Below are positions 6,095-26,788 of a DNA stretch of 26,788 nt, in pieces; the stretch's first letter is position 1, and every line of letters starts with the position of its first letter. The notes beneath the pieces are model-generated. The model saw only the letters and a list, made by a program, of their open reading frames with translations, made no database searches and had not been told where the DNA came from. The stretch lies in IMG/VR virus record IMGVR_UViG_3300014202_000240, positions 1 to 26,788 of that record; one strand, written 5' to 3'. This DNA comes from a virus (Duplodnaviria; Caudoviricetes). The position numbers and the translations under genes are program-made.

Positions 6095-6105
6095 ACAGTT
6101 GTTAA
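6095..6105 (-). promoter_or_regulatory. TTAACAACTGT motif, putative late promoter
   Basis: Overlaps the TAA stop of the endonuclease gene; upstream of the fibre cluster. Confidence 0.65.
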
Positions 6106-7493
6106 TTTGAATAAATCAATTTAACTTTACCACAATCCCAAATCCTTGATAATCCATCTAGGGTAGCGTGTTGTAGTTCAGTCATACCCAAAGGAGTATT
6201 AACTACGTCTTTTCTTCTTGATTGTTTACTAAGTACTTGTTTTTTATAAGTATTATAATAGAAATAGTCTGGAGGTATTATGTAATCTAACTTCCAACCA
6301 GCTTTTATCCAATTATCCTCGTTCGTCCAACGATAATCTATAAAGGTAGAAAAAGCTCCATGTATTTTGTAAGCATATGAACATAATTTAGATAGACCAC
6401 CGACAACATTTACTCCAGATTTCATAACAAATCGACTCAAAGTTAGCTCTGAACTATCTCGATGGTGTTTAGAAATAACAATAAGACCTTGTAATTCTTC
6501 GTTATGATATAATCCATACGACTTAGGAGCAATATATGTGTCTAGTATATGGTATCTAGATAGAAATTCTCTAGCTTCTAATGACTCAACTTCTCTAACT
6601 TCACAGTTTCTAGCGTATATTCGTTCAGTATTCTTATGTAGAGCTGATTTTATAAAAGATTTAACTTGGTTTTTCTTCTTTTTCCATTCAAAATCAAAGA
6701 ATTGTAATAACTTATAGCCACGTTCTTTAGCTTTTTGACGTTTTAGATTATGATACTCACGCCCTACTCTGTCTTCTGTATGCCACATACATCCATGATA
6801 CTCAATTCCTATACCTAATTCAGGGATAAATATATCTATTTCATGAGGATGTATTATACTTCTACTATTTCTTACAACTTCAAATCCTAAACTTTCAACA
6901 AAACTACATAATTCTAATTCTTCACTAGAACCAACATAAGATAAAACATCTCCATATTTCTCTATTAAAGCAAAAGTTCGTTCAAATATAACTCCAGTTC
7001 TATCTTTCCATTTATACTTCCTATCTTTTCTAGTATATGTATCTGAAAGAAATTCTGCTCCTTTTGATCTAGCAAATTCCTTCACTTCTTCTATTGTTAA
7101 TGATGTTTTTAATTGACTTAACCTTTCTTTTTTTTCATGAGGAGACCATTGACCTCCAATAATAGAATCCCAAGTCTTTTCAAAGTATCTACCTTTAGAA
7201 TCTAACCATTTATACTTAGCTTTATTTCCAATATATTCAGTAGATAAACACTTACCTCCTTTAGACTCTGCCTTTTTGTGTAACATTTCTATTGTGGTAG
7301 TTGTTAGCTTTTGTTTTTTAACTTTAGCTCCATGCTGTTTTGACCAGCGACCACTTTTAATAGAATACCATGCAGCATACCATTGATTACCGTCTGCATC
7401 TTCCCATAAGTATTTATGGTGAGAGTTCACATAAACATCAGAAAGACATTTACCTCCTTTGGATTCTGCGTGTTTTTTCAATTCTTCTATCAT
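6102..7493 (-). CDS. Hef-like free-standing homing endonuclease (N-terminal repeats, Vsr/PD-(D/E)xK-like nuclease, GNAT-like C-terminal domain)
   Basis: Three SKGGKCLSxxY-type repeats; EIDIFIPELGIGIEYHGCMWH; IYARNCEV...LSRF...VVGGLSKL...RIWDCG. Confidence 0.75.
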   Translation of the reverse strand: MIEELKKHAESKGGKCLSDVYVNSHHKYLWEDADGNQWYAAWYSIKSGRWSKQHGAKVKKQKLTTTTIEMLHKKAESKGGKCLSTEYIGNKAKYKWLDSKGRYFEKTWDSIIGGQWSPHEKKERLSQLKTSLTIEEVKEFARSKGAEFLSDTYTRKDRKYKWKDRTGVIFERTFALIEKYGDVLSYVGSSEELELCSFVESLGFEVVRNSRSIIHPHEIDIFIPELGIGIEYHGCMWHTEDRVGREYHNLKRQKAKERGYKLLQFFDFEWKKKKNQVKSFIKSALHKNTERIYARNCEVREVESLEAREFLSRYHILDTYIAPKSYGLYHNEELQGLIVISKHHRDSSELTLSRFVMKSGVNVVGGLSKLCSYAYKIHGAFSTFIDYRWTNEDNWIKAGWKLDYIIPPDYFYYNTYKKQVLSKQSRRKDVVNTPLGMTELQHATLDGLSRIWDCGKVKLIYSN

Positions 7494-21546: not shown

Positions 21547-22086
21547 TCAGTACATAAGAGCTATTCCTTTATTACTTTTCTGTATTAGCTGTTTCGTTTC
21601 ATTATTACAAGCGTATACAGGATAGATGTACTTGCTAGTATAATTCTCTATTACGAAGGTATTAGCTTCTTTAATCGTATTGAATACTCCTACTGGCTTA
21701 TACTCATAACGTTTATTTACTAAGTATACGATTACATACTTACAGTCGTAAGTTACTCTTGTTACCACTTTATATTCTAGTGGCGGTCTTGTTTCTATAT
21801 ACTCTTTATATCCTAATTCTTTAAACTTGTCTTTCCAATACTGAACATGTAGTTTACGTGTTTCTATATCTTCCATTACTTCTAAAACTTCTATTTGAAG
21901 CTTATCAAAGTCTTTAATCATCTCTTTACATTTGAATGTACCTATGTCTAATTCTTTCAGAATAAGGTCTATTGCTGTTAAGAATCTACTAGTCTGACTG
22001 ATGTATATCTTTTTACTAGAATCGTTTCTAATGGCGTATATTACGCTTTTAGGAAGGTGTTTTAATTCGTTTAATAATGACCTCAT
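21547..22086 (-). CDS. Degenerate GIY-YIG nuclease-fold protein
   Basis: VIYAI...KIYISQT...IEVLE; SD GAGG. Confidence 0.55.
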   Translation of the reverse strand: MRSLLNELKHLPKSVIYAIRNDSSKKIYISQTSRFLTAIDLILKELDIGTFKCKEMIKDFDKLQIEVLEVMEDIETRKLHVQYWKDKFKELGYKEYIETRPPLEYKVVTRVTYDCKYVIVYLVNKRYEYKPVGVFNTIKEANTFVIENYTSKYIYPVYACNNETKQLIQKSNKGIALMY

Positions 22087-22192
22087 AATAGCCTCTTTAA
22101 CGGGTAGTAATAATACCTATACTAAGATATAGGATGGTGTAAAACAACGTAATACAAGCCTAATACAGAGCTTATAGAAGGGTTATACAAGC

Positions 22193-22203
22193 ATAGTTGT
22201 TAC
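22193..22203 (-). promoter_or_regulatory. Variant late motif GTAACAACTAT
   Basis: One mismatch to consensus, ~107 nt upstream of the GIY-YIG-like gene. Confidence 0.4.
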
Positions 22204-22364
22204 AATATTAAACTTGATATTAGTAAGTGAGTGTAATTAGGTAGGGTTAATGATTTTGTATATTTGAGAGGTGGTGAAGGTGAATGTTTCTATATTTAGA
22301 ATAGTTTATAGGATGTGTAGACCATGGACACCTTTGTCAGCTTTGATTGTCCCATACCCCCCTA

Positions 22365-22472
22365 ACACACACGCATTATACCCGCACGCAGGTTTTAACG
22401 CACACGCATACGCACAGGCGCACGCACCTACGCACACACACGCATCACGGGTATCTAACGCACGTACGCACG
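22365..22472. repeat. CGCA/CA alternating purine-pyrimidine low-complexity tract
   Basis: Twelve CGCA copies in ~100 nt within an AT-rich genome. Confidence 0.85.
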
Positions 22473-22547
22473 TTTCAACTATCTTTAAAACATCGCTTGA
22501 CCAACTATCAGGCACTTAGCTCTAAGCTATTGATATCTAATACGGTG

Positions 22548-22594
22548 GTGTCATAACGATACTGGATAGTGTCACATTGACTATACTGGTGTCA
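22548..22594 (+). repeat. Three GTGTCA direct repeats at 21/20-bp spacing
   Basis: Copies start at 22548, 22569, 22589. Confidence 0.7.
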
Positions 22595-22658
22595 TACTGC
22601 ACCTACGAGGTTTCAATGGGTTATACGATGTACTACGTGATTACGAGGGGTTATAGAG

Positions 22659-23096
22659 TTGGCATGGGCTATGCAATACCACTAAACAGAACGGTTGACG
22701 GTAACGTGTTGACTCAACGCACTTGATGCAATGAGTTGGCACGCTACTTGCTACAACCAAAACAGTGATTGACCACGATACAATGTAATTTTTACAACGT
22801 ATCTTGTGACATTACTGAACTGCTGGTAACATCAGTATGACGGTATCTGATAAGCTTAAATGATACGTAGCGGTCGTTATACGACGTGCTTAATATCTAG
22901 TAGCAATCGTGATTATGTCTGATAAGTTGGCACGCTATTTGAAATGTAAAAAACGAGATTCAACCGACAAGTAAAAACGAGTTGGCATGAATCTTGAAAC
23001 AAAGAAAAGCAGTAATGCTGACAAGCGAAAGTGAGTTGGCACGAATCTTGAAAAGGAATTTAAGAGATAAGCAATCAAGTTGGCATAGGAATTGCT
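22659..23096 (+). promoter_or_regulatory. Array of six sigma-54 (-24/-12) promoter-like sites
   Basis: TTGGCAY sites with GG-N10-G[CA] at 22659, 22736, 22927, 22982, 23036, 23080; the 22736 site TTGGCACGCTACTTGCT is perfect consensus. Confidence 0.8.
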
Positions 23097-23105
23097 AACA
23101 AGATT

Positions 23106-23486
23106 GTAGGTGAAATCGAACACCTTACCAAAAAATACGATAGACATTTATTAAAACTAACAACGTGTCCGATCGAGCCGTAAACTCGATAAGCGTTGCC
23201 CTAAGTCTAAGAAGTTCTCTCGGGGTCGGAGTATTGAGAAGAAGTGAGCACCAAATAGGTGTGAGCTGTATAAGAGCGTAGGAATCATATTAAGCAACTC
23301 CACGCACGTCCACTTATACAGTATTAAGCGAGTTACGTGTAGCCGCCTCTTGTAGTATTACGCTACAGTTGTGCCATGACCGCCTGACAAAAAATCAGGG
23401 ATAACCGCCGAACTCAGTATCGCTAAGGCGTGAACCATTAGGTTAGACGAACAGTCTTTAATTCCGAGATGATCGGGTACTGAGTA
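23106..23486 (+). ncRNA. Putative large structured RNA / early leader
   Basis: Raised GC, no convincing ORF, more than ten consecutive helices including a five-way junction. Confidence 0.6.
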
Positions 23487-23571
23487 GAACGAAACAGACA
23501 TTTAGCCCTAGGCGTAATGCGTCTAAGGGCTATCTGTTTGTCGATAGGTATGTGCCTATCCTGACGAGTTC
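23487..23571 (+). ncRNA. Type II hammerhead ribozyme, predicted cleavage after GUC at 23542
   Basis: Stem II GAAC/GTTC; GAAA 23491-94; stem III CAGACA/TGTTTG; UC 23541-42; stem I GATAGG/CCTATC; CTGACGA 23561-67. Confidence 0.9.
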
Positions 23572-23583
23572 AATGAGGTTTAT

Positions 23584-23796
23584 ATGAAATATAGAGATGT
23601 ATCTAAACCTAAAGTAAAAAAGCCTAAGTTAAAACAAATACATAGAGTAGTAATAGAGTCTGATGACATTGAGGTCATTGAAATGATTCTATCGAATTTA
23701 AAGTATATGTACGTGGATTATGAGGCAGATGAACTTGATTTAAAGATAAACAAAATTGTCGATAATCTTAATATAAAAACAATACAGAGGATATAA
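23584..23796 (+). CDS. First early hypothetical protein
   Basis: SD GAGG 23575-78. Confidence 0.75.
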   Translation: MKYRDVSKPKVKKPKLKQIHRVVIESDDIEVIEMILSNLKYMYVDYEADELDLKINKIVDNLNIKTIQRI

Positions 23797-23798
23797 TC

Positions 23799-24074
23799 AT
23801 GAATAAAATACCACGATTCCTACGATCTAAGCTTAATGCTGAGAGTAAAGCTAAACGAGCGTCTAAACGTGATACAATAACTTCTAGTTATATTGTGTCG
23901 GGTAACACTAAGGATGAGTTTGCTAAAGAGAATAAGGTTAAGAAGCACCATGGTAAGTGGAAAGAAGTTAGCCCTCTGCCTTTGAATAGGTCTGCGGTTG
24001 CTAGACATGCGTATCTTAAACGTAAGGCTAATGCTCCGAGTAAGGTTACTTGGACGTGTCCTGTGAGGTATTAA
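23799..24074 (+). CDS. Basic hypothetical protein
   Basis: SD GAGGA; K/R-rich. Confidence 0.65.
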   Translation: MNKIPRFLRSKLNAESKAKRASKRDTITSSYIVSGNTKDEFAKENKVKKHHGKWKEVSPLPLNRSAVARHAYLKRKANAPSKVTWTCPVRY

Positions 24075-24484
24075 TGTTATTTATTAATAAGTATAAGATT
24101 AAATGTAAAATTATTAAGGCTAATGGTTCTACCCAAATAGTAGAGTTATTAGAGCCTGTACGAGTGTATAAAAAAACTTATATGAATGGAACACCATATG
24201 TAACAGCTCTCTACATTCCAGAAGGTACTTGTATTCATTGTCCTGTCTGGTATAGAACTCTACTTATTGGTGACAAATGTAGAGCTGAGTATGCGATAGT
24301 TATAAGTAGCTACAACAAACGATATAAATCATACACGACTATATCTCGTAACTGTATAGGTAGGTTCACTCCTTATTTTAAAAATGATTTTGTTTTTCCT
24401 GATCGCTTTGATAAAAGTTTAGACATTTGTGCATCAGGTATTCATTTCTTTTTTAGCAAGGAAGAAGCAGAGGAGTACAGTTAA
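24074..24484 (+). CDS. DUF5758-like protein (start revised to 24074)
   Basis: LYIP...KCRAEYAIV...VFPDRFD...CASGIHFF..EEA; TAATG coupling and SD GAGG. Confidence 0.65.
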   Translation: MLFINKYKIKCKIIKANGSTQIVELLEPVRVYKKTYMNGTPYVTALYIPEGTCIHCPVWYRTLLIGDKCRAEYAIVISSYNKRYKSYTTISRNCIGRFTPYFKNDFVFPDRFDKSLDICASGIHFFFSKEEAEEYS

Positions 24485-24720
24485 TGGCATACGTTTATCG
24501 AACACGCTCTACTGCACGTTGTATATGTCAAGGCGGGTTTAATGATGATATATACATGTTTAGAACAGGTACTAGGTATTCGTTCACTGAGTATAACCAA
24601 GATGAGCAAACAGTTATATCTGAGATTAAAAGAATGTATAACACTAATATCTTTTATAAAACTCAACAACAATTAGATAGAGAAATGACACAATCAGGAG
24701 AGTCTAATGAAATACCTTAA
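24484..24720 (+). CDS. Hypothetical protein
   Basis: SD GAGGAG; TAATG coupling. Confidence 0.65.
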   Translation: MAYVYRTRSTARCICQGGFNDDIYMFRTGTRYSFTEYNQDEQTVISEIKRMYNTNIFYKTQQQLDREMTQSGESNEIP

Positions 24721-24874
24721 AGCTTTATTAAAGTATTGGTTTTGTGTTCATGAATGGAACACAATAAATCAAGGTAAGGTATTGGATTCACGCACTCTTG
24801 ATACTATTGGTAACTATTACGATCAAGAATGTTATAAGTGTAAAAAAATTAAACGAACAAAACTTATTATATAA
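24707..24874 (+). CDS. 55-aa CxH...CxxC zinc-ribbon protein, not in ORF track
   Basis: SD AGGAG; MKYLKALLKYWFCVHEW...QECYKCKKIKRTKLII. Confidence 0.75.
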   Translation: MKYLKALLKYWFCVHEWNTINQGKVLDSRTLDTIGNYYDQECYKCKKIKRTKLII

Positions 24875-24886
24875 TAGGAGAACTGT

Positions 24887-25105
24887 ATGGCAAAAGGTAG
24901 AAAGAAAGTATTCCCTAAAGCTCCCATCCCTTTTAACTCTAGGTTAGAACACACCCTAGGTAAGAACTCTAACAAACACTTAGATGTTCAGCGTCTAGCT
25001 TTATATTATTACATAGACTTAGACAATCGTGATGAGAAACGTAGGGTAGACAACACTCTTAAAAGTTTAAGACGCACAATCAATAAACTTAAAGGGAGAG
25101 TATAA
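24887..25105 (+). CDS. Basic hypothetical protein
   Basis: SD AGGAG. Confidence 0.7.
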   Translation: MAKGRKKVFPKAPIPFNSRLEHTLGKNSNKHLDVQRLALYYYIDLDNRDEKRRVDNTLKSLRRTINKLKGRV

Positions 25106-25314
25106 TGTTCGATAATAAATTCACTAACTTAGAGATACTGTGCTTTGTATTAGGTTGGCATGGTGGAACGGTGCATCAAGTAGCAGAGAAACTTGACGTT
25201 AGTCCCGTCCGAATTCTTAATGCTTCCAAGCCCACGCTTCAATATTTAGTGAGAATTGCCCAACAGAAACGCTCTAAATATATTGACCCTATTATTCCTA
25301 AGGAGATATCATAA
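25105..25314 (+). CDS. Small protein with possible HTH
   Basis: LGWHGGTVHQVAEKLDVSPVRI. Confidence 0.6.
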   Translation: MFDNKFTNLEILCFVLGWHGGTVHQVAEKLDVSPVRILNASKPTLQYLVRIAQQKRSKYIDPIIPKEIS

Positions 25315-25685
25315 TGAATAGACAACAAGCTCTATCTAAAATTAGAAAAGCGTATGAAAATAAACAGTTAGGTTTTCAAAAAGGTGCAACTATCTGTATG
25401 TACTATGATAAGAAAACAAATAGCCATTGTGCAGTAGGTGTTTTAATAGGTAAGAAAAAATCATTAATGGATGAAGATGGAAATATAGAAGCACCTTTTA
25501 CTGTAGGTGGTGAAACTATGATAGGAGATGCTTTATGTGAAAAAGATATTACTTCTTTTTGTGGATTAAGTAAAACTGAGCTTACTCAGTTACAAAGATT
25601 ACATGATAATATAATAAACTGTTGTGAAATCAATGAAAAAGAACGTAAAGATAATTTCAAAACATACTTATATAGCTTAAACTAA
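25314..25685 (+). CDS. Hypothetical phage protein
   Basis: CxY...CAVGVLI...LQRLHD pattern; SD AAGGAG. Confidence 0.7.
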   Translation: MNRQQALSKIRKAYENKQLGFQKGATICMYYDKKTNSHCAVGVLIGKKKSLMDEDGNIEAPFTVGGETMIGDALCEKDITSFCGLSKTELTQLQRLHDNIINCCEINEKERKDNFKTYLYSLN

Positions 25686-25695
25686 AGGATGAAAC

Positions 25696-25776
25696 ATGTC
25701 ATTAGATTTATTTATAACATTTATTGTAAACTTACTAGCATTATTTTGCTTAGTTGTTATTGCAGGAGGTATTTAA
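25696..25776 (+). CDS. 26-aa transmembrane micropeptide, not in ORF track
   Basis: SD AAGGA; MSLDLFITFIVNLLALFCLVVIAGGI; TAATG-coupled to the next gene. Confidence 0.6.
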   Translation: MSLDLFITFIVNLLALFCLVVIAGGI

Positions 25777-26120
25777 TGAGTAATCTTAACCCATTATTCC
25801 ATCAAAGATATTGTTTATTTCAAGGTAAGATTGTACATGGTTGGGGTTATGCTAGGGAAACTATGAAGCCCGAATCAACTAAGTTCCTTATCCAAAGACT
25901 CACTGATACTGGTAACTACGAGTATAAACAGTGTGAAGGTTGGAAAGAATTAAAAGATGTGAAGAAGAAAGTAGACACAGAGATTGCCACTGTATCAAGA
26001 AAGATTAACTTCCTTTTATCATTACGTAAACAAATCAAGGAGCTTGAAAATGCAAACAATCCAACAGGTAGTACAGGCACCACACAAGAACAAACAACAA
26101 CCAACGTCGATAGTAACTGA
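25776..26120 (+). CDS. Hypothetical coiled-coil protein (start revised to 25776)
   Basis: SD AGGAGGT before MSNLNP. Confidence 0.7.
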   Translation: MSNLNPLFHQRYCLFQGKIVHGWGYARETMKPESTKFLIQRLTDTGNYEYKQCEGWKELKDVKKKVDTEIATVSRKINFLLSLRKQIKELENANNPTGSTGTTQEQTTTNVDSN

Positions 26121-26283
26121 TAGATTCTTTATACTACAATCGTTCGGTGATATGTATTGTATTAAAAGTATTGAACGATCTGATAACTGGCAAGGTGACG
26201 GACATTATAGAGAGTTTGTAGATGGATTCGACAATGCTATGAGTAGAGCAAGAGAACTATCTGATATTATATACGGAGTCTAG
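26050..26283 (+). CDS. Hypothetical protein (start revised to 26050)
   Basis: SD AAGGAG 26037-42 before MQTIQQ. Confidence 0.6.
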   Translation: MQTIQQVVQAPHKNKQQPTSIVTDRFFILQSFGDMYCIKSIERSDNWQGDGHYREFVDGFDNAMSRARELSDIIYGV

Positions 26284-26284
26284 T

Positions 26285-26434
26285 ATGATTGTTCAAGTAA
26301 AAAGTAATCATGGTGCTAGTATGCTTAGAATGTGGTCATTTTATAAAGCAGTAAAAATGTATAACAATGAGTACATGATAATATCGTTATCACATATATA
26401 TTATGGTTGGAGATTTAGGAGGGTTAAATGTTAG
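26285..26434 (+). CDS. 49-aa protein, not in ORF track
   Basis: SD GGAG; MIVQVKSNHGASMLRMWSFYK...WRFRRVKC. Confidence 0.6.
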   Translation: MIVQVKSNHGASMLRMWSFYKAVKMYNNEYMIISLSHIYYGWRFRRVKC

Positions 26435-26577
26435 CACAATGTATCAATGTAGAGAATTTAATTCACCCTAGACTATATATATTTTATAAAGTATATCAAG
26501 TTAGTAACGTGGTTGTTCGTGTACCTATATTAGATGATTGTCTATACACGTTTAACAAATTCAGGAGATTTAAATGA
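26428..26577 (+). CDS. 49-aa protein, probable paralog of 26285-26434, not in ORF track
   Basis: SD AGGAGG; MLAQCINVENLIHPRLYIFYK...NKFRRFK. Confidence 0.65.
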   Translation: MLAQCINVENLIHPRLYIFYKVYQVSNVVVRVPILDDCLYTFNKFRRFK

Positions 26578-26756
26578 GAACAATATCAATAGCTTTGATT
26601 ATCTACACTATAACATTACTGACAATAGGATTGTCTGCTAAGGTTGTATTAGATAATAGAGAACAGACAATTAAAAATGTAATAAAAGAAGATTACTTTA
26701 TATTGAATAATGTAATATATAAATGTGAAGGATACTTCAAGGGTTATAAGAAGTAG
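26574..26756 (+). CDS. Small membrane-anchored protein
   Basis: SD AGGAG; N-terminal TM segment. Confidence 0.65.
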   Translation: MRTISIALIIYTITLLTIGLSAKVVLDNREQTIKNVIKEDYFILNNVIYKCEGYFKGYKK

Positions 26757-26788
26757 AGGCTTTATGGAAAATTTACATGCCAGAACTT

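Follow-up and report, generated by a model that had tools for sequence, protein, structure and literature searches.

The window (the whole stretch of DNA analysed, 26,788 nt) belongs to an uncultured tailed phage from a lake. Its record is a 26.8-kb fragment rated 31% complete; relative records rated fully complete are about 80 to 96 kb. The minus strand encodes a terminase (an ordinary large terminase), portal, major head protein, tail fibre and endolysin, and the plus strand has small ORFs without assigned function from 23584 onwards. The stretch originally predicted to be a hairpin-dense RNA with a five-way junction (23106–23486) is located where these two gene blocks diverge. The features of the region are as follows.

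22357..22473, no strand assigned: C-tract, then ACGCAC-type short repeats, recognized from the sequence
22546..22600, no strand assigned: three GTGTCA sites (22548, 22569 and 22589), upstream of the promoter array
22660..23095, plus: array of six sigma-54-type −24/−12 motifs (22660, 22737, 22928, 22983, 23037 and 23081)
23106..23198, plus: variable 5′ part of the RNA (hairpin H1 and two-helix hairpin H2), marked by strain differences
23107..23542, plus: 436-nt RNA predicted to be released, its ends being the +1 expected for the last promoter and the expected hammerhead cut
23228..23321, plus: module sharing its feature order with relatives, comprising an A/G-rich linker, a 5-bp hairpin with an AAAUA loop, and a long helix around GAGCGU and a loop with GCAAC at its end
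23412..23485, plus: five-way junction, an 8-bp closing helix and four short hairpins
23487..23571, plus: type II hammerhead ribozyme motif, with all core bases and stems I, II and III
23584..23796, plus: accessory 70-aa ORF directly after the ribozyme
23799..24074, plus: 91-aa basic ORF of no family, the first gene after the ribozyme where a strain lacks the 70-aa ORF

The C-tract region, which includes a tandem repeat at 22398–22441, is a probable genome-end or packaging region. C-tracts with a sigma-54-type motif no more than 900 nt away recur across many relative loci, and the contig end of relative L098 begins at a tract of the same type. In many relatives, too, sigma-54-type motifs are preceded by C-tract and ACGCAC repeats, where several contigs terminate; the genome end is therefore likely to lie nearby, and this would be the region transcribed first. 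Beside it is a 179-aa ORF (21547–22086, minus strand) with no PHROG match, whose N-terminal pattern we take to resemble that of GIY-YIG endonucleases, as a candidate assignment. An HNH homing-endonuclease-like gene is found right behind the major head gene (6102–7493, minus strand), and the head-gene matches of loci L021 and L077 are lengthened and may hold insertions. The sole named relative is a phage of Silvanigrella (Bdellovibrionota), with 30% capsid identity, and a host in the Bdellovibrionota would be a guess, since no related terminase turned up among 185,579 species genomes.

Folding and boundaries of the RNA

All helices named in the original prediction are present and pair where it had placed them, giving 16 helix segments with 156 of the 381 bases paired, and the pairs of the five-way junction (closing helix and hairpins alike) were verified. 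The expectation that the stretch folds better than shuffled sequence held for parts of it and failed for the whole. The 381-nt span has a z-score of −1.21 on the plus strand (11/100 shuffles as good) and −1.89 on the minus strand (5/100), and its 12 local hairpins compare with 9.8 in shuffles, 15/200 of which reach 12. Sub-domains with boundaries chosen post hoc scored better (z −3.4 for the five-way junction, −2.8 for 23245–23321 and −3.1 for 23161–23198), as did the 436-nt unit 23107–23542 (z −3.55, 0/200 shuffles), to which the hammerhead stem III hairpin that it includes contributes part. CCGCC does recur at 23343, 23380 and 23405; its reading as a repeated functional motif is unsupported, with no copy in the RNAs of 4/4 relatives. 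While three copies occur in only 0.16% of 5000 shuffles, three copies of any G/C-only pentamer occur in 2.9%, 13 pentamers (CCGCC and 12 others) are present at least three times in the span, and by our reading of the folds the three copies sit in differing structural settings.

The proposal that the RNA matches no known family was borne out: 0/4227 Rfam families reached the gathering score, and at E values up to 10 there were three weak, unrelated matches, all outside the RNA. Rfam gave no match to ROOL, GOLLD, RAGATH motifs or riboswitches, and no repeats of CRISPR or antitoxin type were seen. ARAGORN called no tRNA or tmRNA gene and did not read the five-way junction as a tRNA, a BLAST search of the RNA against 50,697 phage records returned no match, and the best antisense target within the window, at 12–13 nt, is at chance level. 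By-eye likenesses to the consensus of pistol, twister, hairpin and HDV-like ribozymes, a group I/II intron domain, a c-di-GMP aptamer and a K-turn were dropped. The 436-nt RNA has one ORF of at least 20 aa, a 38-aa GTG frame (23165–23281) without a ribosome-binding site. We conclude that this is a structured RNA of no catalogued family, which is probably expressed.

The original prediction recognized the folded RNA and missed the two elements that bound it. On the 5′ side, six sigma-54-type motifs were found against 0.24 expected, a number reached by 0/100 shuffles, with none elsewhere in the window. Both sequence and spacing agree with the sigma-54 consensus TGGCAC-N5-7-TTGC, given with fixed spacing in PMC12316311. 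Three of the six, including that at 23081, end in TGC; the other three end in TGA and may be weak promoters. The last motif predicts a +1 at 23107, on the first hairpin and one base from the start originally proposed, and the upstream promoters, if they fire, would yield RNA versions of 480–857 nt. One 54-nt unit of the array is missing in run X1. Among relatives, the motif is present in 27/42 records compared to 6/42 for a reversed control. Such family-wide arrays are unusual, and a literature search by title and abstract found no phage early region with arrays of sigma-54-type promoters. The GTGTCA sites are possible binding sites for an enhancer protein, and similar repeats were seen by eye in L002, L128 and L190. 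Since the motifs face both directions in some relatives (L003, L110), they may also serve as binding sites at the genome end.

Several further observations concern the arrays. The promoter region (22640–23110) itself folds on the plus strand (z −3.1), where several motifs pair, G-U pairs included, as the 3′ side of a hairpin; the word GACAAG precedes array motifs here and in relatives. Dense arrays, some on both strands, are present in L003 (1136–1365), L110, L123 (3395–3465) and L140, loci in which no hammerhead was found.

At the 3′ side the boundary first proposed was wrong, as the unit continues into a hammerhead ribozyme directly 3′ of the five-way junction. Its core (CUGACGA at 23561–23567 and GAAA at 23491–23494) is accompanied by the G10.1-C11.1 and A15.1-U16.1 pairs and an NUH cleavage site; stems I, II and III have 8, 4 and 6–7 pairs in that order, I and III closed by loops and II open, which is the type II topology. 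The motif folds far better than shuffles (z −4.8, 0/200) and is predicted to cut after C23542 (GUC, 23540–23542), with a start codon 42 nt past the cut. Stem III is extended by a 13-bp hairpin, and it is probably because of this long stem that the window hammerhead does not reach the Rfam RF02276 cut-off, which those of relatives L313 and L139 pass. Pairing of loop I with the 3′ tail, as a pseudoknot, was sought by eye: the tail of strain X11 has four complementary bases after stem II, and the window has only G-U-rich pairing over the start codon. No second hammerhead was found in the window. A ribozyme-made circular RNA, which needs a self-cleaving ribozyme at each end, was rejected on this ground, four relatives having two and the window RNA only that at its 3′ end.

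The hammerhead has the permutation and full core of the type II hammerheads described in phages and prophages (RF02276; PMC3088659), and shares with them a position a few bases before an early start codon and clustering in relatives. It differs from those described there in its long stem III, lack of Rfam detection and sigma-54-type promoter. The hammerheads in the same source (Perreault et al. 2011) flank phage and prophage genes and precede an early gene of halovirus HF2, whereas the piece freed here would be a long non-coding RNA.

Conservation in lake strains and relatives

Part of the stretch is present in 11 public runs, of which eight were compared (the X-numbered strains); none of the 11 is listed as an RNA run, which has no bearing on expression. 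The substitution list for X4 is complete, its changes summing to the contig's count; all other counts are among the changes listed. X4 has 18 substitutions in 23106–23486, with three in named helices compared to 7.4 expected (P 0.027), all three of which keep pairing. Across all strains, five of 23 listed positions are in helices (P 0.045) and no pair is broken: one-sided changes create or remove G-U pairs on the plus strand, and C23164-G23195 is changed to G-C in X1, X2, X4 and X6. The only change listed in the five-way junction is at loop base 23437, and one at 23372 conflicts with a long-range helix, not one of those named, in the computed fold. The original prediction had looked to compensatory changes in homologues; the strains provide kept helices and one compensatory pair, which is a single event in closely related strains. 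This strain evidence is only modest, because the strains are related and the counts rest on the changes listed.

The conserved core starts near 23192, with a variable 5′ 90 nt, because 23110–23191 are replaced by 80 other bases in X11, and X10 has several deletions in hairpin H1. The X11 core and ribozyme (23192–23573) are 95% identical to the window (19 differences and one gap), compared to about 88% upstream; on a contig of the same length, the neighbouring protein and the terminase have 86–91% amino-acid identity. Contig difference counts place no substitution in the hammerhead of X1, X3, X4 or X7. RNA and ribozyme are more stable than the gene behind them, since the 70-aa ORF is absent from X2, X3 and X7, where 23583 is joined to 23799; X1 and X4 also continue into the sequence of the next ORF.

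We ran a hammerhead descriptor on 356 loci (3.0 Mb), with 366 kb of mostly unrelated loci as a control, and obtained 24 distinct hammerheads, spread over the loci from 13 family records, against one in the control; many family loci stop short of the early region. Most hammerheads of relatives stand directly before a start codon. The pattern is absent from many complete relatives, the type III form occurring in 10/50 records (several by chance) and 2/50 passing the Rfam type II cut-off. Four relatives, L116, L120, L190 and L093, have RNAs of 310, 262, 283 and 438 nt, respectively, each lying between a type II and a type III hammerhead; these enclosed RNAs fold well (z −3.2 to −5.3) and have no ORF led by a ribosome-binding site. 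Three of the four align over a 105-nt module in which 11/21 pairs are changed on both sides, a count from three sequences and a structure derived from them. The module lies about 0.4–0.9 kb downstream of the promoter, after an ORF and between the two ribozymes, and the relatives' RNAs have GNRA-type loops and a receptor-like internal loop.

The order of features in this module recurs at 23228–23321 of the window. A descriptor combining the AAAUA hairpin with the GAGCGU helix and GNAAC loop, written after both had been seen, matches L116, L120, L190 and the window only in 3.0 Mb, and 0/50000 shuffles. Covariance model R1 ranks the module best of 19 window matches, but weakly, at 13.4 bits (E 0.13), on a scale where chance matches go up to 22 bits and L339, a syntenic member, gets only 17. 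L339 was the one further member that tighter pattern scans revealed; a loose scan had returned 86 loci, three of them relatives already known and the rest chance-like. No match to the pattern of the relatives' second motif, an internal loop with a GGGA tetraloop, was present in the window, the window module was misplaced when the whole RNA was aligned to those of relatives by MAFFT, and a BLAST search against 49 relative records gave only chance matches of 14–26 nt. Weighing these results, we consider the window RNA to be probably homologous to that of L116, L120 and L190.

Other features of the relatives are recorded here for their own interest. In six of nine type III hammerheads (cut sites L093:1358, L116:6272, L120:1355, L125:5191, L190:3691 and L339:1575), the following ORF has its purine-rich ribosome-binding site in the 3′ strand of stem III and its start codon 1–5 nt further on, so that cutting would uncover the site. 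Directly before their RNA, relatives encode a conserved basic protein (about 90 aa, motif NGHY/FMK; L116:6625–6897, minus strand; also L120, L093, L190, L125, L326 and L339), which is a candidate partner of that RNA. The window encodes no recognizable homologue of this protein. The window's own 91-aa basic ORF is not homologous to the basic ORF preceding the relatives' RNA (probability 0.4%), and has no PHROG match, no usable Atlas match and one relative at 86%. Folded RNAs of other appearance occupy the same slot before a hammerhead in L158 (3215–3500, minus), L169 (3581–3870, minus), L128 (5563–5900, minus), L098 (430–733) and L139 (2601–2940, minus); by eye, a GGAUAAC strand within an internal loop and a short hairpin are common to L158, L169 and the window.

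Possible roles of the RNA

Our preferred reading is that the phage makes a free 436-nt non-coding RNA, which, early in infection, would act in trans by binding a protein, as a decoy or a scaffold. Host sigma-54 RNA polymerase would initiate at 23107, near the genome end, from the motif described above. The transcript would form a chain of stem-loops, the pairs of which are present and conserved in the strains, and the hammerhead, through its known chemistry, would cut after C23542, freeing the RNA and leaving the early mRNA with a hairpin-capped 5′-hydroxyl end. Taken together, these three steps are likely. The RNA would then accumulate in free form and bind a host or phage protein via conserved loops such as those of the AAAUA hairpin and the GAGCGU helix; we advance the whole chain tentatively, its chances falling a little short of even. 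No binding partner or target came out of the analysis. The RNA seems to be a product and not a leftover, because four relatives use two ribozymes to excise a non-coding piece. Protein binding is suggested by exclusion, since there is no antisense target in the window and no tRNA, riboswitch, CRISPR or antitoxin-type repeat, and unpaired loops are conserved on covarying stems.

The early region of T7 has end repeats, tandem host-polymerase promoters and RNase III cuts, both in the leader before the first gene and between early genes. The arrangement predicted here is similar in its end repeats, cluster of host-polymerase promoters, leader cut off before the first gene and further cuts between early genes, and differs in three respects: its motifs are of the sigma-54 and not the sigma-70 type, the RNA would cleave itself where T7 relies on RNase III, and the leader is long, conserved and folded.

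The main rival is that this leader is simply discarded: the ribozyme would serve to define and protect the 5′ end of the first early mRNA, much as RNase III cuts do for the early RNAs of T7, and the folded leader would be a nuclease- and Rho-resistant spacer that keeps the ribozyme folded. Many early genes of relatives do have a hammerhead just before the ribosome-binding site, the same placement is seen in prophages and in halovirus HF2 (PMC3088659), the 5′ 90 nt are replaced in X11, and L098 and L139 have promoter–leader–hammerhead units without evident sequence likeness. However, a spacer needs neither 436 nt nor 95% conservation, nor the excision by a second ribozyme seen in four relatives, and we regard this explanation as unlikely, albeit a serious contender. 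A cis-acting antiterminator of the put type, one of the roles first suggested, would bind RNA polymerase through its nascent hairpins and allow read-through of the early region. As in the HK022 put RNA, the hairpins come first in an early phage transcript, here from its predicted +1 on. Yet put RNA is short and two-stemmed and must stay tethered to the elongating polymerase, whereas this RNA is about six times longer at 436 nt, has no sequence or Rfam match, and would be severed from the transcript by the hammerhead. The relatives' module, behind an ORF and excised by two ribozymes 0.4–0.9 kb past the promoter, also disfavours antitermination, as does the lack of any terminator-like site on the plus strand of 22100–26788, making it improbable. 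If instead a ligand or protein shifted the fold of the leader and so switched cleavage and first-gene expression, in the manner of a riboswitch, the 9 nt at 23142–23150, a copy of the 5′ strand of stem III, could compete for the cleavage-site strand, as a predicted fold indicates. That copy has a deletion in X3, X4 and X6 and is replaced in X11, no riboswitch family matches, and the downstream gene varies among strains, so that gating of this kind is quite improbable.

An RNA-only particle or virion-associated RNA, whether a ROOL/GOLLD-like cage or a packaging helper resembling prohead RNA, would suit the size, the multi-way junction, the GNRA-type loops and receptor-like internal loop of relatives, and the position adjoining the probable genome end. 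ROOL and GOLLD are likewise large folded phage RNAs of unknown function (PMC12286853), although at about 660 and over 800 nt they are longer than 436 nt, and the window RNA lacks their tRNA island, a match to their Rfam families and evidence of oligomers, and has a ribozyme-defined end. With no conserved long-range or kissing pairs found, an early and not late position and an ordinary large terminase, we consider such a particle distinctly improbable. It is very improbable that the 38-aa GTG frame is a leader peptide gene that accounts for the conservation: by our own reading, a number of the strain changes listed for the frame are synonymous, but there is no ribosome-binding site, the start region is replaced in X11 and conservation extends 260 nt beyond the stop.

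Among the roles originally put forward, a protein sponge or anti-defence decoy may be the right one, and our preferred reading belongs to this class. A sponge of the CsrB/RsmZ type was disfavoured. Such sponges carry many GGA motifs in hairpin loops; the RNA resembles them in having many short hairpins in one small molecule, and differs in having only three GGA in 436 nt (3–6 in the four relatives) and no loop motif repeated across hairpins.

The processing principle is already known, and the RNA itself appears to be new: no description of it was found in the literature, although it may be listed in the catalogue PMC10690425, whose supplements were covered in part. The purpose of self-cleaving ribozymes in phages is described as an unresolved question in PMC6765202. 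As both ends of this candidate RNA are predicted to the base, its cutting, abundance and partners are directly testable. A broader and rather unlikely possibility is that this lineage mass-produces compact RNAs of 260–440 nt, via sigma-54 polymerase and hammerheads, as the first product of infection, which would neutralize a host defence or regulatory protein or form RNA-only particles. If the RNA does act in trans, it would represent a new phage RNA family.
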